A stretch of 64,000 bases of DNA from a virus, in the IMG/VR virus record IMGVR_UViG_3300030116_002312, positions 2,260-66,259 of that record; one strand, given 5' to 3'. The position numbers were made by a program, and so were the translations under genes. Numbering within the stretch: position 1 is the stretch's first letter; each line of letters starts with the position of its first letter. A model generated the notes under the pieces. It was given only the letters and a program-made list of their open reading frames with translations. It was not told where the DNA came from and ran no database searches. Positions 633-64,000 of this stretch are shown here, piece by piece.

Positions 633-903
633 ATCAATAAATCCTATTATAAGAAAAATAACAATAGGAGACTTAAAACAAGGATTAACCTACAAGGTGG
701 GTCAAAAAATGCTAGGTGGTTCGGTAGAGGTAACAGCAATCATTCAAGATGAAGCAGCGTGGTACAAACATCAACAAGTTGTTTATGATGTATACACAAG
801 ATCGGAGGGTGAAGAGTTTTCTAGACCATGGAAAAGATTTTTCGATCAACCAACAGCTATAGAATTTGATGTTCAAGAAAGAGATTCTTACGAAGTAAAA
901 TAA
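622..903 (+). CDS. Hypothetical phage protein
   Basis: ORF track; conserved, but frameshifted, in second copy. Confidence 0.8.
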   Translation: MEIESINPIIRKITIGDLKQGLTYKVGQKMLGGSVEVTAIIQDEAAWYKHQQVVYDVYTRSEGEEFSRPWKRFFDQPTAIEFDVQERDSYEVK

Positions 904-906
904 CAT

Positions 907-1488
907 ATGAAGCCAATTAAAGATTATTTTTTTGTCAAGGTTGAGAAAACAACTGAGGACACTGTAGATATTAACGGAACAGAATTAATAATAGATACTA
1001 GCTACGACCCAATGAAACTAGCTAGGCAGCATGGTGTTGTTGTAGAAACTCCTATATCATTTTCTAAAGGGGTTAAGCTAGATGTTAAAGAGGGGGACAT
1101 TGTTTATTGTCATCACTTTTTAGTAGAAAAAGAAAATGAAGTAAAGTTTTATGAACAAGATCTTGTGTATAAAATTCATTGGAGTGATGTGTACTGTAGG
1201 GAAAGAAATGGTAAATTAAAGATGTTACATTATTGGAATTTTGTTGAACAAAAAATGGAGAACGAAGAAGATTTTAAAACCGAATCTGGACTAATAACAA
1301 AGCCTTATATGGAAGAAGTTAAACTACATGGATACATAAGGTATATGAATGATTGGATGAAAAAACAGGGTATAAAAGAGGGTGATGAGGTTATTTTTTC
1401 AGAAAATTCAGAGTATGACATGAATATTATGGGTAAAAAGTTGATGAGGATGAGAAATTTTGATATCTTAGCTAAAATAGAAAAATAG
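907..1488 (+). CDS. Tandem GroES-like co-chaperonin (two Cpn10-like domains)
   Basis: MKPIKDYFFVK...GVVV...VKEGDIV and KTESGLI...IKEGDEVIFS...MRNFDILA. Confidence 0.8.
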   Translation: MKPIKDYFFVKVEKTTEDTVDINGTELIIDTSYDPMKLARQHGVVVETPISFSKGVKLDVKEGDIVYCHHFLVEKENEVKFYEQDLVYKIHWSDVYCRERNGKLKMLHYWNFVEQKMENEEDFKTESGLITKPYMEEVKLHGYIRYMNDWMKKQGIKEGDEVIFSENSEYDMNIMGKKLMRMRNFDILAKIEK

Positions 1489-1489
1489 T

Positions 1490-1792
1490 ATGGAGGATCA
1501 TGAAATTTTAGACATATGCATGGAAAACTCTTATGATCTCATCATGGGAAAAAAATCTCTAGATGAAATACTAGACTCAAGCGAAGTACCCTATATCTTA
1601 TGGAATGCGGTTAGCAACAAGGACCTTGAAGGAACTATATTTAATGATGTTTTAGATCTTATGATAAAATATTACGAAGATATAGAGGCTTACGAAAGGT
1701 GTTCAAAATTATTAAAATTTAAGAAAAATGAGAAGCTTAGACGTAAAAAAAAGATTAGAGGAATTAATAGAATCAGGAAAACAGGCGTTTGA
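1490..1792 (+). CDS. Hypothetical protein with UVR-like C-terminal motif
   Basis: YYEDIEAYERCSKL motif; conserved in second copy. Confidence 0.65.
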   Translation: MEDHEILDICMENSYDLIMGKKSLDEILDSSEVPYILWNAVSNKDLEGTIFNDVLDLMIKYYEDIEAYERCSKLLKFKKNEKLRRKKKIRGINRIRKTGV

Positions 1793-2018
1793 TTTACTAC
1801 TAGAAGAGGTTAAAAAACCTATAGACCCAGAACTACAAGATGATAAAGCTAGAAATGCTATGAAGGCAAAAAAAGAGTGTTTCATGGACGCTCAAGAAAT
1901 ATTAATGTCTATAAACAAAATTCAAAAACAAATAGAAAACGAAAACGTAGAAGAAAATATAGATAAAGAGGAAAGTTCTTTTCAGGCTGGGTTCTCAGAA
2001 AAATACGCTAAAAAATAG
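1728..2018 (+). CDS. Small helical protein, candidate terminase small subunit
   Basis: Directly upstream of TerL; nearly identical in second copy; function inferred from position. Confidence 0.55.
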   Translation: MRSLDVKKRLEELIESGKQAFDLLLEEVKKPIDPELQDDKARNAMKAKKECFMDAQEILMSINKIQKQIENENVEENIDKEESSFQAGFSEKYAKK

Positions 2019-2037
2019 AGAGTACAATTTATTTTAC

Positions 2038-2045
2038 TATATTTG
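2038..2045 (+). promoter_or_regulatory. Bacteroidota -7 promoter element (TATATTTG) upstream of terL
   Basis: Matches TAnnTTTG; intergenic region conserved in second copy. Confidence 0.7.
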
Positions 2046-2066
2046 CATAATTGGTAAAAATTTCTT

Positions 2067-4094
2067 ATGGAAGGAAAAATAAGAGTAAATGGATTAGAAT
2101 TTAAGCTCCCTCCTAAGCCCAGGAAAAAAGACATTCTTTTTTCAGATCTAAAAAAGAAAGATCAAAAGTGGAAAAGGACGGAACTTCCAGACACCCTTTC
2201 AGAAGAAACAGCAGCCAGTCATTCAGAGTTTATAAGCACGGAGTTTGAAAGAAGAAAGAGTGGTGTTTGGTTTATGAATAATGGAAAACCTACCTACATA
2301 ACAGGTGAACATTATTATTATTTAAACTGGTGCAAACTAGATATAGGTTACCCTGAGTATAGAGATAGGGATAGAAGGTTCTTTATTTTTTGGGAAATAT
2401 GTAAAAACGATCCAGAGTGTTTTGGAATGGTGATGGTTAAACACCGTAGAGAGGGTGCTTCTTACAAGGGTGCCGCTATGTTATTATACGAGATAACATC
2501 TAGATATAATTCACACGGTGGTATTATAAGTAAAACAGGAGTAGATGCTAAGTCTTTATTTACAGACAAATTAGTTTATATGTTTAGACACCTACCTTTT
2601 TTCTTTCAACCTATTATAGATGGTAGCGATAATCCAAAGAGCACTTTAAGTTTTAATGCTCCAGGACAAAAGATTTCTAAAAACTTTAAGAAGATTGTAA
2701 AGTCAGAAGCATTAAACAGTAAGATAGATTGGAGGAACACAAAAGACAACTCTTATGATTCAGTAAAGTTAATTAGATATTTGTGTGATGAGGGTGGTAA
2801 ATGGGTAGATGCTAATGTGGAAAAGAACTGGCAAGTTGTTAGATCTTGTTTAACACTAGGTGATAAGATTATAGGAAAATGTTTTATGCCTACCACGGTA
2901 AACGAAATGGCAGATTCAGGTGGAGAAAGGTTTAAGAATATATGGGATGATAGCAGTATAGAAGAAAGAGATGGTAATGGAAGAACTAGATCTGGTATGT
3001 ATAGCTACTTTACTCCAGCTTACGATGGGTATGAAGGGTTTATAGATGAGTATGGGATGTCTGTTGTAGACACACCAACAAAAGAACAGGCTAGGTTTAT
3101 AGGTAAAAATATAGGAGCTAAAGAATATCTTCAAAACGTAAGAGAAGGCTATAAGAAAAATACAACTAAGCTTTCTGAAGAAAAAAGACAAAGACCGTTT
3201 ACTGTAGAAGAGGCTTTTAGAAGTGACTCTAGACACAGTCCTTTTGATGTAGAAAGAATATATCAACAAATGGATTATAATGAAGAGTCAGAGGGATTAA
3301 TAGTAAAGGGTGACTTTATATGGAAAGATGGGATGAAGGACACTAAAGTTCTTTGGAAACCAGGATCTACTGGTAGATGGAGAATATCTTGGTTGCCTCC
3401 AGAAGAAAGAAGAAATAATATAAAGATGAAGGGTAATAGAAAGTGCCCAGGAAACGAAATAGAAATGGTGGCTGGATGTGATCCTTACGATCACGACACA
3501 ACAACGGATGGTAGAAGATCGGATGCAGCTTGTTATGTTTATAAGAAGTTTACAATGATGGATGATTTTTCTAACGTGTTTGTTTGTGAGTATATAGCTA
3601 GGCCACCTAAGGCAGAAATGTTTTACGAGGATGTTCTTAAGACTTGTGTTTTTTATGGGTGTCCTATATTAGTAGAAAATAATAAAATAGGTATTTTAAA
3701 GTATTTTGAAAGAAGGGGATATTATGAGTATTTAATGGATAGGCCAGAATCAACTCATACAGATAGTAGTAGAAAACAAAAAACAAAAGGAATACCTTCA
3801 ACAGGTGTTGCTGTATTGAATGCACAAACAGAAGCTATAGCTTCTTATGTGTATGATTATGTAGGAATACTTGATTTGGATAAAATGGAAATGGGTAAAT
3901 GTTATTTTAACAGACTACTTGATGATTGGAGTCGTTTTGAACCAGATAATAGAACAAAGTATGATGCTACTGTTGCATCTAGTTTAGCTTTACTTGGTGC
4001 TCAAAAACATGTTACACAGAAGAAAGTTAAAAAAATAAGTATTAACTTTATAAAAAAATATAATAATTCAGGATTAATATCTAAGAGAATATAG
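2067..4094 (+). CDS. terL: Terminase large subunit
   Basis: VKHRREGAS Walker A-like, YLCDEGGK Walker B, AGCDPYD RNase H-like nuclease, LVENN and YDATVA motifs. Confidence 0.92.
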   Translation: MEGKIRVNGLEFKLPPKPRKKDILFSDLKKKDQKWKRTELPDTLSEETAASHSEFISTEFERRKSGVWFMNNGKPTYITGEHYYYLNWCKLDIGYPEYRDRDRRFFIFWEICKNDPECFGMVMVKHRREGASYKGAAMLLYEITSRYNSHGGIISKTGVDAKSLFTDKLVYMFRHLPFFFQPIIDGSDNPKSTLSFNAPGQKISKNFKKIVKSEALNSKIDWRNTKDNSYDSVKLIRYLCDEGGKWVDANVEKNWQVVRSCLTLGDKIIGKCFMPTTVNEMADSGGERFKNIWDDSSIEERDGNGRTRSGMYSYFTPAYDGYEGFIDEYGMSVVDTPTKEQARFIGKNIGAKEYLQNVREGYKKNTTKLSEEKRQRPFTVEEAFRSDSRHSPFDVERIYQQMDYNEESEGLIVKGDFIWKDGMKDTKVLWKPGSTGRWRISWLPPEERRNNIKMKGNRKCPGNEIEMVAGCDPYDHDTTTDGRRSDAACYVYKKFTMMDDFSNVFVCEYIARPPKAEMFYEDVLKTCVFYGCPILVENNKIGILKYFERRGYYEYLMDRPESTHTDSSRKQKTKGIPSTGVAVLNAQTEAIASYVYDYVGILDLDKMEMGKCYFNRLLDDWSRFEPDNRTKYDATVASSLALLGAQKHVTQKKVKKISINFIKKYNNSGLISKRI

Positions 4095-6506
4095 ATGAAA
4101 GCACAATTTGAAACTATAGGGGGGTATCCTACTATTTTTGTTAGCAACGAAGATAAAGCTAAAAACGAATACGGTCTTCAGTATTTTAAAAGAATGTATC
4201 ACGACTGGAAAAACAACAGTCAAATGAACTATCAAGATAGAAAAAGAAGATTTGAAAAAATGAGATCCTACGCAGAAGGAACTCAAAGTGTTGGTAAATA
4301 TAAAGATTTATTAGATGTTCAGGGCGACAGTTCTTATATGAATATAGATTGGACTCCAGTTTCCATAGTGCCTAAGTTTGTTGATGTTGTTTGTGGTAGT
4401 ATTATTAATCAAGAACACACCGTAAAAGCAAACGCTATAGATCCTATATCCATAGATGTTAGAAGAAAGGATACCAGAAAGATGGTAGCTGACATGTTAT
4501 TAAGGCCAGTTAGATCTGCTATGACTCAAAAAACTGGAAGGACTTATGATAAACCTGGGTTTGTAGCTAAAGATTATGATGAAATAAAAATATTCATGTC
4601 TTTAAATTATAAACAGGCTCAGGAAATAGCTATAGAGAATGGAATCACTTTTGTTTTACAACAAAATGATTTTGAAGAAATGAGAAAAAAATTAATAAGG
4701 GATATGGTTGTTATTGGAACAGCGGCTATAAAAACTTATATAGACCCTTCTTATGGAGTAAAAATAAGATATGTTGATCCAGCAAACTTAATAACATCTC
4801 ACACGAACTATCCTGATTATAAAAACATACAGCACGCTGGTGAAATCTATACAATATCTATAGCTGAATTAAAACAAATGGCTGGTGATCAGTTCACAGA
4901 AGAAGAGTATAAAGATATAGCACAAAATTACGCAAAGAAAACAGAAGATACTGATTACATGAATAATGGTAGGTTTTCTGGTATAGGGGATTATAATCAC
5001 GAATATGATAAGTTTTCTATAGAGATAATGGATGCTGAGTTTATATCTACCTATGACATGAAGTATGAAAAGAAACAAAATAACTTTGGTGGATATGCGG
5101 TAAATAAAAGAGGTTATAACTACAAGCTTCCTAAAAACTCAAAAAACAAAAGAGAGGTTATAAGAAATAGCGTAAAGGTTGTTTACAGCGGTAAATACAT
5201 TGTAGGTACAGATTATATATTTGATTATGGTCTTGCTAAAAACATGTCCAGAAAAAAATCAAAACTATCTGAAGTTTCTTTGTCATATATGGTTTATACT
5301 CCAAATATTCACAAAATGCAGAACGTTTCTTTGGTTCAAAGAATGATTCCTTTTGGAGATCAAATACAACTAGCTCACTTAAAAATGCAACAGGTAATGG
5401 CTAAAGCTAGACCAAAAGGAGCTGCTTTTGAGGTAGGATCTTTAGAAAATGTTTCTAAAGGAGATGGTGGAACATTTACACCTCTTGAGCTTCAAGAAAT
5501 ATTTGATCAAACAGGTAATATATACTATAGAAGAATGGATGATGAGGGTATGGCCTCAAACGCTGTTCCTATACAAGAATTAGAGAATGGTATTGGTAGA
5601 GACATGTTGCAGTTAATTCAAATATATCAACACAATTTACAGATGATTAGAGATGTAACGGGTGTTAATGAGGCTAGGGATGGAACTAAACCATCTAGTG
5701 AGGCTTTGGTTGGTGTGCAGAAAATGCAGTTGTTAGCATCTAATAATGCTACTAGAAGTATAAATGATGGTTATTTGAAAATATACAAAAACTTATCAGA
5801 GTCTATATGTTTAAAGCTACAAGATATAGTAGAGTATGATAAAGCTATTGATGGTTATATATCAGCCATAGGTAGTTCTACTATAGAAACTATAAGAATA
5901 AACAAAGATGTTTCCGCTAGAGACTTTGGTATATTTGTTGAAATAGCTCCTGATGAAGAAGAAAAAGCTAGACTGGAACAAAATATTCAGGTTTCTATAG
6001 CACAAAAAGAACTTCGTATAGAAGATGCTATTATGATCAGAGACATAAATAATGTTAAGCTAGCTAATCAATTACTTATTCTTAGAAGAAAAAAGTATCA
6101 AGAAGAACAAATGGCTATGCAAAAAGCTGCCTCTCAAGCTAACGCTCAACAACAACAACAATCTGTTATGGCCGCTACACAAGCAAAACAACAAGAATTG
6201 CAAATGGAGGCCCAAATAGAAATGCAAAAAATGCAAGCAGAAGCACAGATAGAAAGTCAAAAAATGCAATTAGAGTTTCAGTTAAAAAATCAATTTGAAG
6301 AAGCTTCTCATAAAAGAAGATTAAACGAAATTCACTTAACTAATCAAGCTAAAGTTGCTGCTGGAAAAATACAAGGAGATTCTAGAAAAGATAGTATAGA
6401 AAAAAGTGCTCACTTTCAATCAAGAATGATCGAGCAAAGAAAGGGCAATCAACCACCGATAGAGAATCCTGATGAAGAGTTTGGTGCGTTACCAGACATG
6501 GAATAA
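4095..6506 (+). CDS. Portal protein
   Basis: 803 aa after TerL; IRDVTGVNEARDG motif; Q-rich coiled-coil C-terminal barrel. Confidence 0.85.
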   Translation: MKAQFETIGGYPTIFVSNEDKAKNEYGLQYFKRMYHDWKNNSQMNYQDRKRRFEKMRSYAEGTQSVGKYKDLLDVQGDSSYMNIDWTPVSIVPKFVDVVCGSIINQEHTVKANAIDPISIDVRRKDTRKMVADMLLRPVRSAMTQKTGRTYDKPGFVAKDYDEIKIFMSLNYKQAQEIAIENGITFVLQQNDFEEMRKKLIRDMVVIGTAAIKTYIDPSYGVKIRYVDPANLITSHTNYPDYKNIQHAGEIYTISIAELKQMAGDQFTEEEYKDIAQNYAKKTEDTDYMNNGRFSGIGDYNHEYDKFSIEIMDAEFISTYDMKYEKKQNNFGGYAVNKRGYNYKLPKNSKNKREVIRNSVKVVYSGKYIVGTDYIFDYGLAKNMSRKKSKLSEVSLSYMVYTPNIHKMQNVSLVQRMIPFGDQIQLAHLKMQQVMAKARPKGAAFEVGSLENVSKGDGGTFTPLELQEIFDQTGNIYYRRMDDEGMASNAVPIQELENGIGRDMLQLIQIYQHNLQMIRDVTGVNEARDGTKPSSEALVGVQKMQLLASNNATRSINDGYLKIYKNLSESICLKLQDIVEYDKAIDGYISAIGSSTIETIRINKDVSARDFGIFVEIAPDEEEKARLEQNIQVSIAQKELRIEDAIMIRDINNVKLANQLLILRRKKYQEEQMAMQKAASQANAQQQQQSVMAATQAKQQELQMEAQIEMQKMQAEAQIESQKMQLEFQLKNQFEEASHKRRLNEIHLTNQAKVAAGKIQGDSRKDSIEKSAHFQSRMIEQRKGNQPPIENPDEEFGALPDME

Positions 6507-48332: not shown

Positions 48333-48364
48333 CTAATATAGTAAATATTTTTCACTTCTCCAAA
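48333..48364 (-). promoter_or_regulatory. Early promoter
   Basis: TTTG-N20-TATATTAG on minus strand. Confidence 0.65.
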
Positions 48365-48507
48365 CGAATACCTAGTTCTGTTGCTCTTTCGATCAAATAC
48401 TCTGTATCGTAATCAATTTCCCCTCTATAATAAGCTAGTGCTAGTTTATCATCTTCGTTTGGTAGTATGTGTTCTTCTACAAATTGTTCTATTTCCATTG
48501 TTTTCAT
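48352..48507 (-). CDS. Small early protein (51 aa, not in track)
   Basis: MKTMEIEQF...GIRLEK*. Confidence 0.6.
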   Translation of the reverse strand: MKTMEIEQFVEEHILPNEDDKLALAYYRGEIDYDTEYLIERATELGIRLEK

Positions 48508-48511
48508 AATT

Positions 48512-48730
48512 TTATTTATTTAAGTTCATGTTTATAAATCTTATTTCGTCTGTTGATGTATTTATTTCCTCATTTGAAAAAGCTTTCTCAAAACCCTTTA
48601 AAGAATAAACTCGTCCTTGTTTCTCTGCCTCATATATAAATTCATCATCACTTAATTCATTTATCCATTCAATATCTACAACCCTATCATCATTTGTATT
48701 AATTACATATACTCTTGTTTCTTTTTCCAT
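48512..48730 (-). CDS. Small early protein
   Basis: EAEKQGRVYSLKGFEKAF motif. Confidence 0.75.
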   Translation of the reverse strand: MEKETRVYVINTNDDRVVDIEWINELSDDEFIYEAEKQGRVYSLKGFEKAFSNEEINTSTDEIRFINMNLNK

Positions 48731-48738
48731 AATTTTAT

Positions 48739-48939
48739 TTATTTAATTTGTTTAACATCATTAATTATAACTTCCTCTAAATCATCAAAGCAAACTTGCT
48801 CATCTCTTATTAGTACATCATCTAAAGGCATTTTAATATATGTATCTATACTATATCCTATATCATTATGTTTAATTACTAACTTTACATTTTTAATAGT
48901 TATTTCTATACTATCTTCTAATTTTAATTCTTTTTCCAT
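48739..48939 (-). CDS. Small early protein
   Basis: ORF track. Confidence 0.65.
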   Translation of the reverse strand: MEKELKLEDSIEITIKNVKLVIKHNDIGYSIDTYIKMPLDDVLIRDEQVCFDDLEEVIINDVKQIK

Positions 48940-48943
48940 AATT

Positions 48944-49141
48944 TTATTCTTTAATTTTTAATACTATACTTTCTAACTTATTATTTGTTTCTTCATCATA
49001 CAAATCTTCTTCTACTATTGATACCTCATAAACATCAGAATCATTAGAGTATCTATAATTTACTTGTATGTTAGATAAATCATTATCCTTTCTTAATTCT
49101 GTTAAGTAATCAAATAATTGTTTTGCGTTTAATTTTTCCAT
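48944..49141 (-). CDS. Small early protein
   Basis: ORF track. Confidence 0.65.
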   Translation of the reverse strand: MEKLNAKQLFDYLTELRKDNDLSNIQVNYRYSNDSDVYEVSIVEEDLYDEETNNKLESIVLKIKE

Positions 49142-49315
49142 TGTTTAAATTTTTTTTATTAATACTATTGACTTTGTCATTTTTTTGTTGTAACTTTTTC
49201 CACTTTGAGTCAAAGAAGTAAGAATCTTATTATAAAAATATAACTCTCTATACTACTACTCCTACTTCTTCTCCTCTTCTACAAACTACAAACTAATTTC
49301 TTGTATTAGGGTTAG

Positions 49316-49567
49316 CTATATCCTTTCTTGTATTAATGTACCTGTTTTAATTGCCTGTAATATATTAGTATATTTAGATAATTCTTTTTCAGTATAATCA
49401 AAATATTCTCCATTAATCGCACTGAATACATGAAAAATATTTTCTTCTTCATTGTACATTATTTCTTTACTACTTTTTGCTAATCCATTTGCTAATGATA
49501 TATAAAAATCCTTGTACTCATTTAAACATATTGATTTTAATTCTTCTAAACTTTTTACTACTTTCAT
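49316..49567 (-). CDS. Small early protein
   Basis: ORF track. Confidence 0.7.
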   Translation of the reverse strand: MKVVKSLEELKSICLNEYKDFYISLANGLAKSSKEIMYNEEENIFHVFSAINGEYFDYTEKELSKYTNILQAIKTGTLIQERI

Positions 49568-49578
49568 GATTTTAAATT

Positions 49579-50034
49579 TTATTGGTTATTATTATTTATT
49601 CTATCTTCTCTTAACTTAAGTTCATCAATCGCTTGACTTCTGTCTTCATAACTTCTTTCTCTATCCATTACTATCTGTTCTAAAACAGAGGTCTTGTATC
49701 GTATGTATGGTCTGTCTGGCGATAGTGAATTGCTTTCATGATCATGAGAATCATTTTTTGGTAGTTCTATATTATTTATTATATAGTCCTTAAGTTCTTC
49801 GTAATCATGACCATGTCTTAAACACCATTCAGATAATTCCACATTACTACCTTCACCTATTGAACGTAATCCATAACTATCAGTTTCTACTATATGCATT
49901 TCTCCCTCATAATCATCTAAATTAATATGTCCATATACATTAAATGTTTGTCCATTTATTATAACATCTATATCAATAGATAAGTTGTATACTTCGATGA
50001 ATTGTTCTGTTATTTGTATTTCCATTGTTTTCAT
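49579..50034 (-). CDS. Early protein
   Basis: ORF track; AAAACTAAAAACT upstream of ATG. Confidence 0.7.
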   Translation of the reverse strand: MKTMEIQITEQFIEVYNLSIDIDVIINGQTFNVYGHINLDDYEGEMHIVETDSYGLRSIGEGSNVELSEWCLRHGHDYEELKDYIINNIELPKNDSHDHESNSLSPDRPYIRYKTSVLEQIVMDRERSYEDRSQAIDELKLREDRINNNNQ

Positions 50035-50049
50035 AGTTTTTAGTTTTAT

Positions 50050-50071
50050 GAGGGGTGTATTTCAACCCCTC
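50050..50071 (-). other. Intergenic hairpin GAGGGGU-UGAAAUAC-ACCCCUC
   Basis: 7-bp perfect stem just upstream of ATG 50034, no U-tract. Confidence 0.6.
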
Positions 50072-50081
50072 TAGTTAATAT

Positions 50082-50540
50082 TTATTTTGCGAAAGGATTA
50101 GGTAAATTAGGTTCTTCATTTATATATCTAGTTTCCATAGAGTCCTTTCGTGCAACACTTGGTCTATCAACATTTGATATTACATTTTTTCTAGTTAGTT
50201 GGTATAATAAATCTTGTAACATCTCTTTGATTAACTTGAATCTTTTTTTCTCATCTTTAGACCAAGCGTGGCATGAATAATCTTCATAGTATTGCTGTTC
50301 ATTCTCCAACATTTCTTTGAACTCATTACTGTATGATTTGACTGAAGAAGATTCTTCACCTAAGTTTATCCATACATAAAATTTAGAGTTTCTTTCGAAA
50401 GCTTTTTTGAATATTTTAATCATTTCCAAAGATTTTCTGGCATCATGGTAACTACATTCAGATGCATTTTGTTGATATCTTTCTTCTTCATTAATCATGT
50501 CAGAAAATACGCTGTTGAATTTTTTGTTTATTGTTATCAT
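50082..50540 (-). CDS. Early protein with internal duplication
   Basis: FSDMINEEERY...SY and FKEMLENEQQY...SC repeat. Confidence 0.7.
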   Translation of the reverse strand: MITINKKFNSVFSDMINEEERYQQNASECSYHDARKSLEMIKIFKKAFERNSKFYVWINLGEESSSVKSYSNEFKEMLENEQQYYEDYSCHAWSKDEKKRFKLIKEMLQDLLYQLTRKNVISNVDRPSVARKDSMETRYINEEPNLPNPFAK

Positions 50541-50562
50541 AGTTTTATAGTTTTTAGTTATT

Positions 50563-50594
50563 TAAAGTTAATATTAGTTTTTGATAATTCCAAA
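50563..50594 (-). promoter_or_regulatory. Early promoter
   Basis: TTTG-N20-TAACTTTA on minus strand. Confidence 0.65.
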
Positions 50595-50618
50595 TAAAAT
50601 GAAATTTATTTTCAGTTA

Positions 50619-51122
50619 CTACCTGCATGGAGTAAAGTTTCTATCATCATATCTGCCCTCTTTTACACACTTAATATTTTCTAGTGTTCGGTAGATATTG
50701 TTCAGAATTTTATTTACCAATTTAGGTGTAGCATCTAAACAAGAGGTGTCCCAATCACTTCTTAATACTTTGATAAACCCTCTTCGTTCCATTGAATTTT
50801 GCATACTTTCTGAGCCCCATTTCCATTTACCTTTTTCGTAGTATATTCCAATGCCCGAGCTAGAGTTTACTTTTTTCACACCCTTTGAAATACACTCTCT
50901 AAAATATTGGTGATTATGGTAGTAAAACATATACATAAAATGATTTATTTCATCATTGTTTGATAGTTTTATTTCTCTAATTGTTCCATCTGAACATAAC
51001 AGTGGAGAAGTTTTTGCTAATTCTTTAGCTTTTGTTTCTCTTCTATTTTTGAGCTCTCGTGATCCTGAGAGGACTAAATTGTTAAGTTCGTTGTCTGTTA
51101 AATTTTCAAAATTTGTTTTCAT
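50619..51122 (-). CDS. Early protein
   Basis: ORF track; TAAAACTATAAAACT upstream. Confidence 0.7.
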   Translation of the reverse strand: MKTNFENLTDNELNNLVLSGSRELKNRRETKAKELAKTSPLLCSDGTIREIKLSNNDEINHFMYMFYYHNHQYFRECISKGVKKVNSSSGIGIYYEKGKWKWGSESMQNSMERRGFIKVLRSDWDTSCLDATPKLVNKILNNIYRTLENIKCVKEGRYDDRNFTPCR

Positions 51123-51134
51123 AGTTTTATAGTT

Positions 51135-51317
51135 TTATTTATTTAATAATTTTTTTGCTTTTGTTAACGCTTTATAATAATGCACTGCACTTTTATAATG
51201 ATGTGTAGTACATGAATGAAATTTTAAATTTCCAACACTATTATAATTTAAAGTATTATCTTTTTTTCTATTTATATAAAATACTTTATTTCCTATTTTT
51301 GTTTCGTGTATTGTCAT
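51135..51317 (-). CDS. Small basic early protein
   Basis: ORF track. Confidence 0.6.
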   Translation of the reverse strand: MTIHETKIGNKVFYINRKKDNTLNYNSVGNLKFHSCTTHHYKSAVHYYKALTKAKKLLNK

Positions 51318-51341
51318 TTCGTTTAGTTTTATAGTTAGTAA

Positions 51342-51734
51342 TTATTTAGACATTAGAGCAAAGCTATAGTCTATTTCTGTTTTCATGTCTGCGAAATTCT
51401 CTCTAGCTTTTTCAGTTGCATGAAGTGAAGCTAGTAGTTCACTGTTTAAGTTACAGGTAAATTGATAACCCGAGTTGTTGGCTATTTCCATAGATTCAGT
51501 TAAACTGGCGTCATTTTCCATAAGGTATTTTATTGCTTTATGGTAATAAATTATATCTACCCAAAATAGATTTTTTTCATCTAAATAGTCATATAAATCA
51601 TCATAGCTTTTTAAACCCTCTAAATCAGATTCATTAATGTATATATTAATTTGTGCTAGGTTTCTAATTATGTTATGTGCCTCTATTTCTTTTTTTGTTC
51701 TAAAGTCATCAAATCTTTCGTTATATGGTTTCAT
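51342..51734 (-). CDS. Early protein, acidic helical
   Basis: DIIYYHKAIKYL...LNSELLASL motif. Confidence 0.75.
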   Translation of the reverse strand: MKPYNERFDDFRTKKEIEAHNIIRNLAQINIYINESDLEGLKSYDDLYDYLDEKNLFWVDIIYYHKAIKYLMENDASLTESMEIANNSGYQFTCNLNSELLASLHATEKARENFADMKTEIDYSFALMSK

Positions 51735-51746
51735 AGTTTTATAGTT

Positions 51747-51917
51747 TTATCTTGTTTTTAATTCTGTTTTTAATTGCTCTTTCATTTCAATTAATTGCTC
51801 TCTTTTTAAATTCCACTTGTTTACAATAGGAATTGTAATCATTTCATTAACTGATTTTAGAATTTGATTTAATTCTTGTACTGTGTACTTACTTAATTCG
51901 TGTTTATATTCTCTCAT
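51747..51917 (-). CDS. Small early protein (56 aa, not in track)
   Basis: MREYKHELSK...ELKTR*; shared start motif. Confidence 0.65.
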   Translation of the reverse strand: MREYKHELSKYTVQELNQILKSVNEMITIPIVNKWNLKREQLIEMKEQLKTELKTR

Positions 51918-51941
51918 AATTTTATAGTTTTATAGTTAATA

Positions 51942-52139
51942 TTATTGATTTGATTTCTTTTTGAATTTTAATATTTCCCTTAATATTTCCAATCTACCTA
52001 AATCGTAAGCCCTTAACATATCGTAATCATTATCAGTGTCTTTAGATAATTGTTTTTCACCTCCATCATATTCGCTTACAAAGTGTTCAACATCTGTTAT
52101 TAAGTCAGTAAGATACTCTTCTAATGTTTTGTAGTTCAT
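51942..52139 (-). CDS. Second early gene, downstream of the ribozyme cut
   Basis: ORF track; TAAAACTATAAAACT upstream of ATG. Confidence 0.7.
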   Translation of the reverse strand: MNYKTLEEYLTDLITDVEHFVSEYDGGEKQLSKDTDNDYDMLRAYDLGRLEILREILKFKKKSNQ

Positions 52140-52160
52140 AGTTTTATAGTTTTAAAGTTT

Positions 52161-52216
52161 GTAATAGACAGGAGGAACTCCTCCTGTTTCGGTCAATCAG
52201 ACCTCATCAGTATTAC
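52161..52216 (-). ncRNA. Type I hammerhead ribozyme
   Basis: GUAAUA CUGAUGA GGUC-UGAUU-GACC GAAA CAGGAGG-AGUU-CCUCCUG UC^UAUUAC: full core and three perfect stems; predicted cut between 52167 and 52166. Confidence 0.95.
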
Positions 52217-52452
52217 TTTCTTAGGTCTGTTATTCTGTTATATATAAACCAATAAGCCTCTTGTATACCATCTTTATCTAATTTGATTGCACACCTCTCA
52301 CCAACTGCTTCTTTGCTCCAACCTGCAAGGTAAAATGTTATTTCTAGTTTATTGATATGACCACTGAAGTTAATGAACCAAGTATTATTAGTTTCATTGT
52401 TTTCCCCTAATGCTAGGCTTATAAGGTTTAGTAAATCTGCTCTGTTTTTCAT
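52213..52452 (-). CDS. First early gene (79 aa)
   Basis: ATG 52452 (MKNRAD...) lies downstream of the promoter; stop TAA is inside hammerhead stem I. Confidence 0.75.
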   Translation of the reverse strand: MKNRADLLNLISLALGENNETNNTWFINFSGHINKLEITFYLAGWSKEAVGERCAIKLDKDGIQEAYWFIYNRITDLRK

Positions 52453-52479
52453 AATTTTTAGTTTTAAAGTTTGTATGTC

Positions 52480-52512
52480 CAAAGATAAAAACAAAAAAAT
52501 TTAATATCCAAA
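52480..52512 (-). promoter_or_regulatory. Major early promoter
   Basis: TTTG-N21-TATCTTTG, full Bacteroidota consensus. Confidence 0.85.
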
Positions 52513-53075
52513 CGAAAATGTAAAAAACTTTCAATCTCTCGAGGAAAATAATTTAAAAATAATTTGTGAACAGAGGTGTCAATCTGTTTAACAGATAATG
52601 AATTTAATTAGTGGGGGGATTGACTCACTTTCTATGTTGTTTCTTCTTGAGGGAAAATCCATCTAATGAACTTTCTCACACTACCGAATGGCATTATATC
52701 AAAAAGATATTTAATGTCTTAAATCGCTTTATTTGTTGTCATGTAATTCATTTGACAATTCCAAATAAATAGTTAATTATTTTTATCAACATGTTATAAA
52801 CATTATAGTTGTTAATAAAAAAATATGTATGATTGTTTGGATATGTGGGGAATGTGTATATATTAAAATATATTATATAATAATATTCGGTACTACCAAA
52901 TATTATACACAAAAGTTTTGAAGAAATTGATGTTCAAAAATCAAGGTCTAAAATTTCAGACCAACAGATAGTTATGTTTTTTGGTTTCGGCAAATTAGTT
53001 TCGGTTACCCCCACCCCCCTAAAAAATTTCGTTTTGTTGTGGTCTGCGACTGCCCTACTATATATAGTTATCCCA
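52513..53075. other. Large divergent non-coding region, probable genome terminus/packaging or origin region
   Basis: Longest ORF-free stretch; palindromes and G/C tracts; flanked by outward-facing promoters. Confidence 0.5.
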
Positions 53076-53374: not shown

Positions 53375-53661
53375 TGGCAGCAACTATAAGAAGAACAACT
53401 AAAGGGAAAGGGGCAAACTACAGGCCGACCAAGTCTGGGGCTGGTATGACTAAGAAGGGTGTGGCTGCTTACAGAAGGGCTAACCCAGGATCTAAGTTAA
53501 AGACTGCTGTTACTGGTAAGGTAAAAAAGGGTAGTAAGTCTGCTAAAAGAAGAAAGTCTTATTGTGCTAGAAGCAAGGGGCAAATGAAAATGCATAATGT
53601 TAATTGTAAAAAGACTCCAAACAAAAGAATATGTCAGGCTAGAAGGCGTTGGAAATGCTAA
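53374..53661 (+). CDS. Highly basic conserved phage protein (DUF6321-like)
   Basis: YRRANPGSKLKTAVTG...RRKSYCARS. Confidence 0.7.
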   Translation: MAATIRRTTKGKGANYRPTKSGAGMTKKGVAAYRRANPGSKLKTAVTGKVKKGSKSAKRRKSYCARSKGQMKMHNVNCKKTPNKRICQARRRWKC

Positions 53662-61315: not shown

Positions 61316-61592
61316 ATGGAAATTGAATCAATAAATCCTATAATAAGAAAAATAACAATAGGAGACTTAAAGCAAGGATTAACTTATAAAGTTGGTCAAA
61401 AAATGTTAGGCGGATCTGTAGAGATTACTGCTATAAGATGAGGCAGCGTGGTACAAACACCAACAAGTAGTTTATGATGTGTATATAAAATCAAATGGAG
61501 ATAAATTCTCAAGGCCTTGGAAAAGGTTTTTCGATCAGCCGACAGCTATAGAGTTTGATGTTGAGGATAGAGATTCTTACGAAGTACAATAA
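61316..61592 (+). pseudogene. Frameshifted homolog of 622..903
   Basis: 5-nt deletion near 61436 gives TGA at 61439-61441. Confidence 0.75.
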
Positions 61593-61595
61593 TAT

Positions 61596-62177
61596 ATGAA
61601 ACCAATTAAAGATCACTTTTTTATCAAGGTTGATAAAAAAACTGAAGACACTACAATTATAGGAAATACTGAATTAGTAATAGATACTAGCTACGATCCA
61701 ATGAAGTTAGCTAGACAATATGGAGTTGTTGTAGAAACTCCTATATCACTTTCTAAGGGGGTTAAACTAGATATAAAGGAAGGAGACACGGTATATTGTC
61801 ATCACTTTTTAACTGAAAATGAAAACGAAGTAAAGTTTTATGAACAAGAACTTGTTTATAAAATTCATTGGAGCGACATTTATTGTAGGGTTAGAAATGG
61901 TAAATTAAAAATGTTACACTATTGGAATTTTGTAGAACAAAAAATGGAAGACGAAAAAGACTTTAAAACCGAATCTGGTTTAATAACCAAACCTTATATG
62001 GAAGAGGTTAAGCTACATGGATATATAAGACACATGAGTGATTGGTCTAAAAAACAAGGACTAAAAGAGGGTGATGAGGTTATTTTTTCAGAAAACTCAG
62101 AGTATGACATGGATATTATGGGTAAAAAGTTGATGAGGATGAGAAATTTTGATATATTAGCTAAAATAGAAAAATAG
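61596..62177 (+). CDS. Tandem GroES-like protein, second copy
   Basis: Homolog of 907..1488. Confidence 0.8.
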   Translation: MKPIKDHFFIKVDKKTEDTTIIGNTELVIDTSYDPMKLARQYGVVVETPISLSKGVKLDIKEGDTVYCHHFLTENENEVKFYEQELVYKIHWSDIYCRVRNGKLKMLHYWNFVEQKMEDEKDFKTESGLITKPYMEEVKLHGYIRHMSDWSKKQGLKEGDEVIFSENSEYDMDIMGKKLMRMRNFDILAKIEK

Positions 62178-62178
62178 T

Positions 62179-62469
62179 ATGGAGGATTACGAAATCTTAG
62201 ACATATGTATGGAAAATTCATATGACCTTATTATGGGTAAGAAATCGTTAGACGAAATACTAGAATCAAGTGAAGTTCCTTATATCTTATGGAACGTTGT
62301 TAGCGAAAAAGATCTTAAAAGCTCTATATTTAATGATGTATTAGACCTTATGATACAATATTACGAGGATATGGAAATGTATGAACGATGTTCAAAATTA
62401 TTAAAATTTAAGAAAAATGAAAAGCTTAGACGTAAAAAAAAGATTAGAAGAGTTAATAGAGTCGGGTAA
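62179..62469 (+). CDS. Homolog of 1490..1792
   Basis: Protein alignment. Confidence 0.7.
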   Translation: MEDYEILDICMENSYDLIMGKKSLDEILESSEVPYILWNVVSEKDLKSSIFNDVLDLMIQYYEDMEMYERCSKLLKFKKNEKLRRKKKIRRVNRVG

Positions 62470-62707
62470 ACAAGCATTTGATCTTTTGCTTGAAGAAGTT
62501 AAAAAACCCGTAGACCCAGAATTACAAGATGATAAAGCTAGAAACGCTATGAAGGCAAAAAAAGAATGCTTCATGGATGCACAAGAAATTTTAATGTCTA
62601 TAAATAAAATTCAAAAACAAATAGAAGAAGAAAATATTGAGCAAAATATAGACAAAGAAGAAAACTCATTTCAGGCTGGATTCTCAGAAAAATACGCTAA
62701 AAAATAG
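62417..62707 (+). CDS. Homolog of 1728..2018
   Basis: Protein alignment. Confidence 0.7.
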   Translation: MKSLDVKKRLEELIESGKQAFDLLLEEVKKPVDPELQDDKARNAMKAKKECFMDAQEILMSINKIQKQIEEENIEQNIDKEENSFQAGFSEKYAKK

Positions 62708-62755
62708 AGAGTACAATTTATTTTACTATATTTGCATAATTGGTAAAAATTTCTT

Positions 62756-64000
62756 ATGGAAGGCAAAATAAGAGTAAATGGATTATATTTCAATCTTCCT
62801 CCTAAACCAAAGAAGAAAGATATTCTTTTTTCTGATCTAAAAAAGAAAGATCAAAAATGGAGGAGAGTAGAAATGCCAGAAACCCTTTCAGAAGAAACTG
62901 CCGCTAGCCATTCAGATTTCATAAGCACAGAGTTTGATAGAAGAAAAAACGGTGTTTGGTTTATGAACAATGGCAAGCCTACCTATATAACAGGAGAGCA
63001 TTACTATTATTTAAACTGGTGTAAACTAGATATAGGTTATCCTCAATATAGAGATAGGGACAGAAGGTTCTTTATTTTTTGGGAAATATGTAAAAACGAT
63101 CCAGAGTGCTTTGGTATGGTTATGGTAAAACATCGTAGAGAGGGTGCTTCTTATAAAGGAGCGGCTATGTTGTTGTACGAAATAACATCTAGATATAATT
63201 CACATGGTGGTATTATAAGTAAAACAGGTGTGGATGCTAAATCATTATTTACTGACAAGTTAGTTTATATGTTTAGACACCTTCCTTTTTTCTTTCAACC
63301 TATTATAGATGGTAGTGATAATCCAAAAAGCACATTAAGCTTTAATGCCCCAGGTCAAAAAATATCTAAAAACTATCAAAAGATTGTTAAGTCAGAAGCT
63401 TTAAATAGTAAGATAGATTGGAGAAACACAAAAGATAATTCTTATGACTCTGTTAAGTTAGTTAGGTATTTATGTGATGAGGGAGGAAAATGGGTAGACG
63501 CTAACGTAGAAAAAAATTGGCAAGTTGTTAGATCTTGTTTAACGCTAGGTGATAAAATAATAGGAAAATGTTTTATGCCCACTACAGTAAACGAAATGGC
63601 TGATTCTGGAGGGGAAAGATTTAAAAATATATGGGACGATAGCAGTATAGAGGAAAGAGATGGTAATGGTAGAACAAGGTCTGGAATGTATAGTTATTTT
63701 ACTCCAGCTTATGATGGGTACGAGGGTTTTATAGATGAGTATGGGATGTCTGTTATTGATACCCCAACAAAAGAGCAGGCTAAATTTATAGGTAAAAATA
63801 TTGGTGCTAAAGAGTATCTTCAGAACGTAAGAGATGCTTACAAGAAAAATACCACTAAATTATCTGAAGAAAAAAGACAAAGGCCTTTTACTGTTGAAGA
63901 AGCTTTTAGAAGTGACTCAAGACACAGTCCTTTTGATGTAGAAAGAATATATCAACAAATGGATTATAATGAAGAGTCACAAGGTTTAGTAGTAAAAGGT
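62756..64000 (+). CDS. terL: Terminase large subunit, second copy, truncated by window end
   Basis: ATG 62756, colinear with 2067..3311. Confidence 0.9.
   Translation, partial: MEGKIRVNGLYFNLPPKPKKKDILFSDLKKKDQKWRRVEMPETLSEETAASHSDFISTEFDRRKNGVWFMNNGKPTYITGEHYYYLNWCKLDIGYPQYRDRDRRFFIFWEICKNDPECFGMVMVKHRREGASYKGAAMLLYEITSRYNSHGGIISKTGVDAKSLFTDKLVYMFRHLPFFFQPIIDGSDNPKSTLSFNAPGQKISKNYQKIVKSEALNSKIDWRNTKDNSYDSVKLVRYLCDEGGKWVDANVEKNWQVVRSCLTLGDKIIGKCFMPTTVNEMADSGGERFKNIWDDSSIEERDGNGRTRSGMYSYFTPAYDGYEGFIDEYGMSVIDTPTKEQAKFIGKNIGAKEYLQNVRDAYKKNTTKLSEEKRQRPFTVEEAFRSDSRHSPFDVERIYQQMDYNEESQGLVVKG

Follow-up and report, generated by a model that had tools for sequence, protein, structure and literature searches.

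Intergenic hammerhead ribozymes in phages have been known since 2011, when a role for them in RNA processing was also proposed, and the copy described here adds no new principle to that picture. In the excerpted text of the 2011 study, hammerheads flank single genes of prophages and phages and are proposed to process long phage transcripts; clustered prophage hammerheads are reported there to cleave in vitro, one set in E. coli as well, and a halovirus hammerhead is described as lying 13 nt ahead of the first ORF on an early transcript, with the mapped 5' end of that transcript at most 3 nt from the cut (Perreault et al. 2011, PMC3088659). A review from 2019, as excerpted, repeats the processing role while regarding the function of bacterial and phage hammerheads as still largely elusive (PMC6765202).

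The locus we describe lies in a 64,000-nucleotide stretch of viral DNA, the whole of which we refer to as the window. Its hammerhead shares with those in the excerpted text of PMC3088659 the canonical core, the intergenic position beside small genes of changing identity, and the proposed role, that of cutting RNA into single-gene or operon-length mRNAs. The prophage hammerheads of that excerpt are clustered, whereas the window holds a single copy, and the family to which this copy belongs is set apart from them as type I, with a stem I of constant length, a four-pair stem II, a U-N-A-N-U loop and a probable, covarying contact with the bases that flank stem I. The HHphage ribozyme of the haloarchaeal viruses HF1 and HF2 is like the window copy in lying a short distance before a start codon on an early polycistronic transcript; according to the same excerpt it is a core variant that needs high Mg2+, in an archaeal virus, 13 nt before the first ORF (PMC3088659), whereas the window copy has a standard core, would leave a 27-nt leader and lies between ORFs 1 and 2. 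With the curated family RAGATH-1 (RF03152) the window aligns over the A-rich stretch that precedes stem I, over stems I and III and over both core segments, but the 5' hairpin of that family is not formed in the window, where its pairs are non-standard, and by the family's score threshold the window copy is no member. Among systems of other kinds, RiboJ-type synthetic ribozyme insulators and RNase III acting on T7 early mRNA likewise make cuts that give defined 5' ends independent of the sequence upstream; the former are engineered, and the latter uses a host protein enzyme and has a different end chemistry.

Structure and statistical support of the hammerhead

On the minus strand, positions 52216..52161 read GUAAUA-CUGAUGA-GGUC(UGAUU)GACC-GAAA-CAGGAGG(AGUU)CCUCCUG-UC-UAUUAC. 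Judged on this sequence, on its score with a model built from other viral copies and on covariation within its family, the element at 52161..52216 (-) is a genuine type I hammerhead ribozyme, for which cleavage is predicted. Read in the direction of that strand, an open stem I of six pairs (52216..52211 with 52166..52161) is followed by the CUGAUGA core (52210..52204), stem-loop II with four pairs and a 5-nt loop (52203..52191), the GAAA core (52190..52187), stem-loop III with seven pairs, or eight when A15.1-U16.1 is counted (52186..52169), and finally U16.1 and C17 (52168..52167). All the conserved positions are present, namely C3 U4 G5 A6 N7 G8 A9, G12 A13 A14, the A15.1-U16.1 pair and a position 17 that is H and not G. 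The helices are arranged around the core as expected, with loops capping stems II and III while stem I stays open, and covariation in the family backs this arrangement. The predicted cut falls 3' of C52167, in a GUC triplet (52167/52166, -), and would leave on gene 2 a leader of 27 nt (52140..52166, -) that consists of the 6 nt of the 3' strand of stem I and an A-rich stretch and is without a Shine-Dalgarno sequence. The preliminary description of this locus had given the same minus-strand hammerhead with all core bases and perfect stems, had placed the UAA stop codon of gene 52213..52452 within the 5' strand of stem I, and had put the leader on gene 51942..52139 at 27 nt; the sequence agrees exactly, the stop codon occupying bases 2-4 of that strand (52215..52213, -) and the 3' product starting at 52166 ahead of an ATG at 52139.

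Nearest-neighbour folding of the isolated 56-mer gives the hammerhead secondary structure as the minimum-energy fold, at -19.7 kcal/mol. When 24 nt of the upstream ORF are added, an alternative helix is preferred, in which the last codons of gene 1 bind the 5' strand of stem II (-24.7 versus -21.2 kcal/mol for the hammerhead, an advantage of 3.5 kcal/mol). We considered this helix as a conserved anti-ribozyme element and rejected it: across the family, competition of upstream sequence with the hammerhead is at the level of shuffled sequence, with a mean difference of -5.23 observed versus -5.30 shuffled (p = 0.60). The AGGAGG/CCUCCU complementarity of stem III, which could be taken for a Shine-Dalgarno/anti-Shine-Dalgarno pair, was treated as coincidence because stem III varies freely among relatives.

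A relaxed descriptor, applied to both strands and asking for at least 5 pairs in stem I and at least 3 pairs in stems II and III, found one site in the 64-kb window against one in total over 200 dinucleotide-preserving shuffles, and 158 sites in 1.34 Mb of loci against 0 in 3 shuffled copies. A chance origin of the hammerhead match at 52161..52216 is excluded. The hammerhead models of Rfam, which the preliminary description had put forward as a check, lent no such support. At the gathering score, Rfam 15 returned 0 matches over the whole window and 0 matches in 11 related loci, so its curated thresholds do not vouch for this family; when 601 bases were searched permissively, allowing E values as high as 10, the sole hammerhead family to come up was RF03152, whose 28.0 bits fall short of its gathering score of 56.3.

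Since Rfam gave no match at the gathering score, we built a covariance model of our own, R1. Two pattern scans of IMG/VR had yielded 35 loci and at least 118 loci, and the descriptor, run on 154 sources, gave a family of at least 123 distinct type I copies in 93 of them. The seed alignment A1 took 52 of these 123, those in which stem-loop II measures 13 nt, the stem III segment does not exceed 16 nt and all six pairs of stem I are formed, a rule that happened to exclude the window; R1 was thus made from 52 other viral hammerheads. At the window hammerhead it scores 59.9 bits (E 1.9e-17), and it finds no further hammerhead in the 64-kb window, where the runner-up reaches 11.2 bits (E 0.66). Over 86 of the 154 sources, a set that omits 14 of the loci L001-L035 (10 duplicates together with L017, L023, L032 and L035) and all of L100-L153, R1 gave 91 matches, among which the window copy ranks 32nd. 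The four named loci match the stem II pattern and, by eye, look like type III, with stem I closed by a loop.

Covariation and relatives of the phage family

Covariation in related phages had been named in advance as a way to check the structure. In an alignment of the 88 distinct R1 matches, fitted to the model, 99.2% of cells pair, and of the 15 pairs 13 vary on both sides. Covariation scores 0.888, where shuffles give 0.171, and controls slid out of register pair in 30-34% of cells. In the seed alignment A1 pairing is 100%, a figure that follows in part from the descriptor used for selection, whereas the variety of pair types does not.

Across the family stem I is fixed at six pairs. Among the matches listed, 95 of 123 have a stem-loop II of 13 nt, whose loop follows the pattern U-N-A-N-U. 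The base just before stem I (position -1) is adenine in 89% of the 123, and adenine also stands at +1 in 74% and at +2 in 70%. The window copy carries these extras too, with A at -1 (52217, -), A at +1 and +2, and the U-N-A-N-U loop II; in fact it shows every feature by which we define the R1 family, which include the four-pair stem II, an upstream stop starting at +1 of stem I and the 27-nt leader.

Base 5 of loop II and base +1 vary together. The combinations, among the matches listed, are U-A in 73, A-U in 15, A-A in 4 and G-A in 3 (n = 95), so that the two bases are complementary in 88 of 95, with a mutual information of 0.48 bit and a Fisher p of 3.5e-14. Both complementary combinations occur, the window having the majority one, U with A; the minority A-U combination is found in 11 distinct stem backgrounds, and three loci contain both. 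We read this covariation as a tertiary contact that would run from loop II to the far end of stem I, its geometry being our inference, and A52160, the first base past stem I, would take part in it in the window together with A52217. In natural hammerheads that cleave fast, a tertiary contact of this kind joins loop II to stem I and is needed for speed at cellular Mg2+.

The copies are spread over phages of varying closeness to the window. The contig L014, which has several early-region genes in common with the window, carries two hammerheads in the corresponding operon: one, whose stem I is identical and whose stems II and III differ, comes right behind the first gene, and the other lies two genes beyond it; in L010/L160 a single hammerhead follows at least 3 small genes. 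Whole-record searches for the R1 family gave 1, 2 and 1 matches in three related IMG/VR records and none in MW202828.1, the nearest uncultured relative by terminase. At some other IMG/VR loci, L009, L031 and L094 among them, hammerheads of the family are crowded, with 4-5 in 2-3 kb, or about one per small gene.

Cultured phages also have the element: each of the 4 Flavobacterium elemovirus records searched contains one family match. The copies of elemoC and elemoA are intact, and those of elemoF and elemoD have two mismatches in stem II, so decay does occur. For the window copy itself, the idea that it is an inactive relic or a chance look-alike without function is very improbable; those two weakened relatives are what can be said for it, and against it stand the single descriptor match in 200 window shuffles, the E value from R1, and the fact that every core base and all three stems are intact in the window and the bases of the proposed tertiary contact present. 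In Flavobacterium phage elemoF_6-3D (NC_055853.1; L162, 16030-16137) the hammerhead lies under gp66, a 35-aa 'hypothetical protein' annotated on the opposite strand, and an unannotated 21-codon ORF with a standard leader ends at the ribozyme (L157, ~1558-1623).

Direct sequence searches were less productive. A search of viral contigs with the product of gene 1, P0001, gave 12 pattern matches, none confirmed. In the phage collection a megablast of 24 kb found no match, and a blastn of 3 kb had a sole match, to one gene at 53385-53660. A blastn of the 101-nt ribozyme region against the same collection gave, in the best 30 of 73 records, weak matches over at most 34% of the query with E from 0.08 up; those 30, mostly Staphylococcus phages, were taken as chance. 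A pattern scan of the genome collection had one match, in a Bacteroidota genome (a Chryseolinea sp. MAG; L154, 2601-2627), and that locus may be a prophage. A literature search brought up no paper that, by its title, deals with hammerheads in Flavobacterium phages.

Phage genome and placement between genes

By gene content the window comes from a tailed phage, with a large terminase at 2067-4094, a portal at 4095-6506 and, on the minus strand, a primase/helicase at 43231..41468. The terminase is closest, at 40-43% identity, to those of Flavobacterium, Cellulophaga and other Bacteroidota phages, and DNA of the window phage is present in marine metagenomes from 12 studies; the source is a marine phage that is itself uncultured and has its nearest relatives in culture among phages of Flavobacteriia. 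The stretches 751-3311 and 61440-64000 are ~87% identical at a fixed offset of 60689, so that the large terminase occurs twice. Probably the contig runs once around a genome of ~60.7 kb and back into its start, by way of two strain variants.

The hammerhead sits near the start of a minus-strand operon that runs from 52452 down to ~39540 through ~30 small ORFs and then into replication genes. Nearly all the small ORFs of 39540-52452 (-) have, just before the ATG, a common A-rich leader of ~15 nt with no Shine-Dalgarno sequence, and such leaders fit a Bacteroidota host, as the terminase relatives suggest. Gene 1 (52213..52452, -), which encodes the 79-aa P0001 and has the leader common to the other small genes, and gene 2 (51942..52139, -), which encodes the 65-aa P0002, are both without a PHROG match; in gene 2, 11 of the 20 listed strain differences fall at third codon positions, as expected of a real coding sequence. 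The 73-nt gap between them is occupied by the hammerhead, compared with ~10-25 nt for other gaps of the operon, and this is the one junction of ~30 that carries a ribozyme. Gene 1 had been called the first early gene. It is indeed the first ORF past the divergent intergenic region at 52500-53040, and the early timing of the operon is what its layout suggests.

A possible operon promoter, TTTG-N21-TATCTTTG, is suggested by its position at 52480..52512 (-). The motif is what we take to be the Bacteroidota-type promoter consensus, and its 6 matches in the window are no enrichment over the 5.57 expected by chance; a sigma-70 promoter scan was at chance level as well (8 against 10.0 expected). One RNA run, X20, prepared with oligo-dT and available as contigs, which cannot show RNA ends, covers 5 of 30 bins of the window, none of them over 52116-52316. 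The divergent region itself, at 52520-53024, has several-fold to ~20-fold the contig depth of the adjoining genes in three marine DNA runs and is partly conserved in L014; a conserved regulatory element or an origin may lie there. At the other end of the operon, 39478-39501 agrees with 52441-52464 in 22 of 24 bases. Its minus strand reads like a duplicate of the leader and ATG followed by the first four codons (MKNR), with which an 8-codon ORF begins, and what is left of a former gene start may be seen here. An 8-pair hairpin with one G-U pair (GAGGGGUU / CACCCCUC), at ~50075..50050 (-), lies directly before the leader of gene 50034..49579, in the one further gap of the small-gene operon that is unusually long.

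In the family at large the ribozyme is placed with some precision. In the 111 cases, among the matches listed, where an ORF of at least 40 codons opens within 150 nt, the ATG follows the cut at a median distance of 25 nt (interquartile range 23-30.5), and at 19 to 38 nt in 91. On the other side, 97 cases have an upstream ORF; its stop codon starts no further than 7 nt to either side of the first base of stem I (-7..+7) in 87 of them and lies inside stem I in 16, a layout that includes the window (again among the matches listed). The downstream proteins fall into 95 clusters from the 111 cases listed, have a median length of 85 aa and are mutually unrelated, and the ribozyme thus fills the gap between a stop and the next start with no tie to any gene family.

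Proposed processing of operon RNA and its meaning

Taken together, we believe it likely that the element is a functional type I hammerhead that, from the 73-nt gap, cuts the long leftward operon RNA between genes 1 and 2. Once the 56 nt have been transcribed, the RNA would fold and cut itself after C52167. Hammerhead cleavage yields 2',3'-cyclic phosphate and 5'-OH ends. The upstream piece would retain gene 1, its stop codon and the entire ribozyme body with hairpins II and III, and because that body stays upstream, two hairpins and a 2',3'-cyclic phosphate would make up the 3' end of the gene 1 piece. The RNA downstream of the cut would begin with a 5'-hydroxyl and 6 nt of ribozyme, followed by the phage's standard A-rich leader. 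By its location the cut would therefore uncouple gene 1 from the rest of the operon, while gene 2 would gain a short, unstructured, standard 5' end that insulates its start region from upstream sequence. The preliminary description had likewise proposed that the operon RNA processes itself, and this is the best explanation we have, in agreement with the proposal in the excerpted text of PMC3088659; cleavage in the cell, the end chemistry at the window site and the effects on stability and translation we infer. As to other targets, trans-cleavage by the window ribozyme was considered and set aside: there is no other copy of the substrate arms and none before the early genes, searches with a 15-nt motif (up to 4 substitutions) and a 9-nt motif (1 substitution) returning scattered weak matches only.

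The position of the stop codon had led to a further suggestion, that ribosomes terminating at the UAA block folding, so that the RNA would be cut only when translation of gene 1 drops and processing would act as a sensor of translation. The geometry fits. In the window the stop codon sits within stem I; among the matches listed, 46 of 97 upstream stops start at -2 or later and so overlap stem I or the core, and where a stop starts within -7..+7, as most do, a terminating ribosome would cover stem I and much of the core. All genes of the operon are tightly packed, however, with gaps of ~10-25 nt throughout, so that a stop close to stem I is expected from compaction alone, and in 51 of the 97 listed cases the stop overlaps neither stem I nor the core, lying more than 7 nt upstream in 10 of those. 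The cut is moreover irreversible, and one ribosome-free interval would suffice for it. Nor does the competing helix formed by the end of gene 1 come to the aid of such a mechanism: it would act in the opposite sense, ribosomes freeing the ribozyme rather than blocking it, and, being at the shuffled level across relatives, it is not a family trait. We therefore regard gating by translation as unlikely, and as supported no further than the geometry goes.

A different role, which we think improbable, is that of a cassette boundary, the hammerhead serving as shared homology at which related phages swap small genes, whether or not cleavage is important. Metagenome contigs hint at gene swapping at hammerheads. 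In three marine DNA runs, contigs that match the hammerhead leave the window sequence at its edges; the loose ends are at 52186 and 52219, the joints at 52217 and 52218, and we read one loose end as matching the gene upstream of the hammerhead in L029. A contig from run X7 has a hammerhead with a different stem III ahead of gene 1 itself, contig depth is higher in the hammerhead bin than in both flanks, and in L160 a P0002-like protein lies, by eye, upstream and not downstream of the hammerhead. At 80% likeness and with short sides, however, such joints often come from other organisms that merely have the conserved motif, and a role in recombination would not account for the perfectly conserved catalytic core or for the covariation read as a tertiary contact. 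Swapping at this boundary is compatible with cleavage of the operon RNA by a functional hammerhead, our preferred explanation, and is not a replacement for it.

Regardless of the mechanism, there are practical consequences for annotation, in that Rfam 15 at the gathering score misses the family in the window and the 11 related loci, and that the RefSeq record NC_055853.1 annotates an opposite-strand 'hypothetical protein' over a ribozyme. What the present locus adds to the known phage hammerheads is a set of placement rules at the level of the family, a probable tertiary contact backed by covariation and a pointer to culturable phages. The family offers rules that can be tested, namely the fixed distance from cut to start, the ribozyme body that would stay on the upstream message and the covarying contact. 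In Flavobacterium sp. BAL314 with phage elemoC_14-1A, which has an intact copy at NC_062743.1 17009..16952, cleavage and its effect on expression would be directly measurable, and elemoF and elemoD provide naturally weakened stem II variants for the same measurements. Tentatively, and with less confidence than we attach to cleavage at the window site, we suggest that phages whose Bacteroidota-like hosts do not rely on Shine-Dalgarno pairing may have in this family a 'ribozyme insulator' cassette of natural origin. In such a cassette the ribozyme would form a protective 3' end on the upstream message, contribute 6 nt to the next gene and leave it an unstructured leader of ~25 nt like that of a primary transcript; it might also serve as a joint for the swapping of small genes, and base 5 of loop II together with base +1 would form a family-specific tertiary lock not drawn before.
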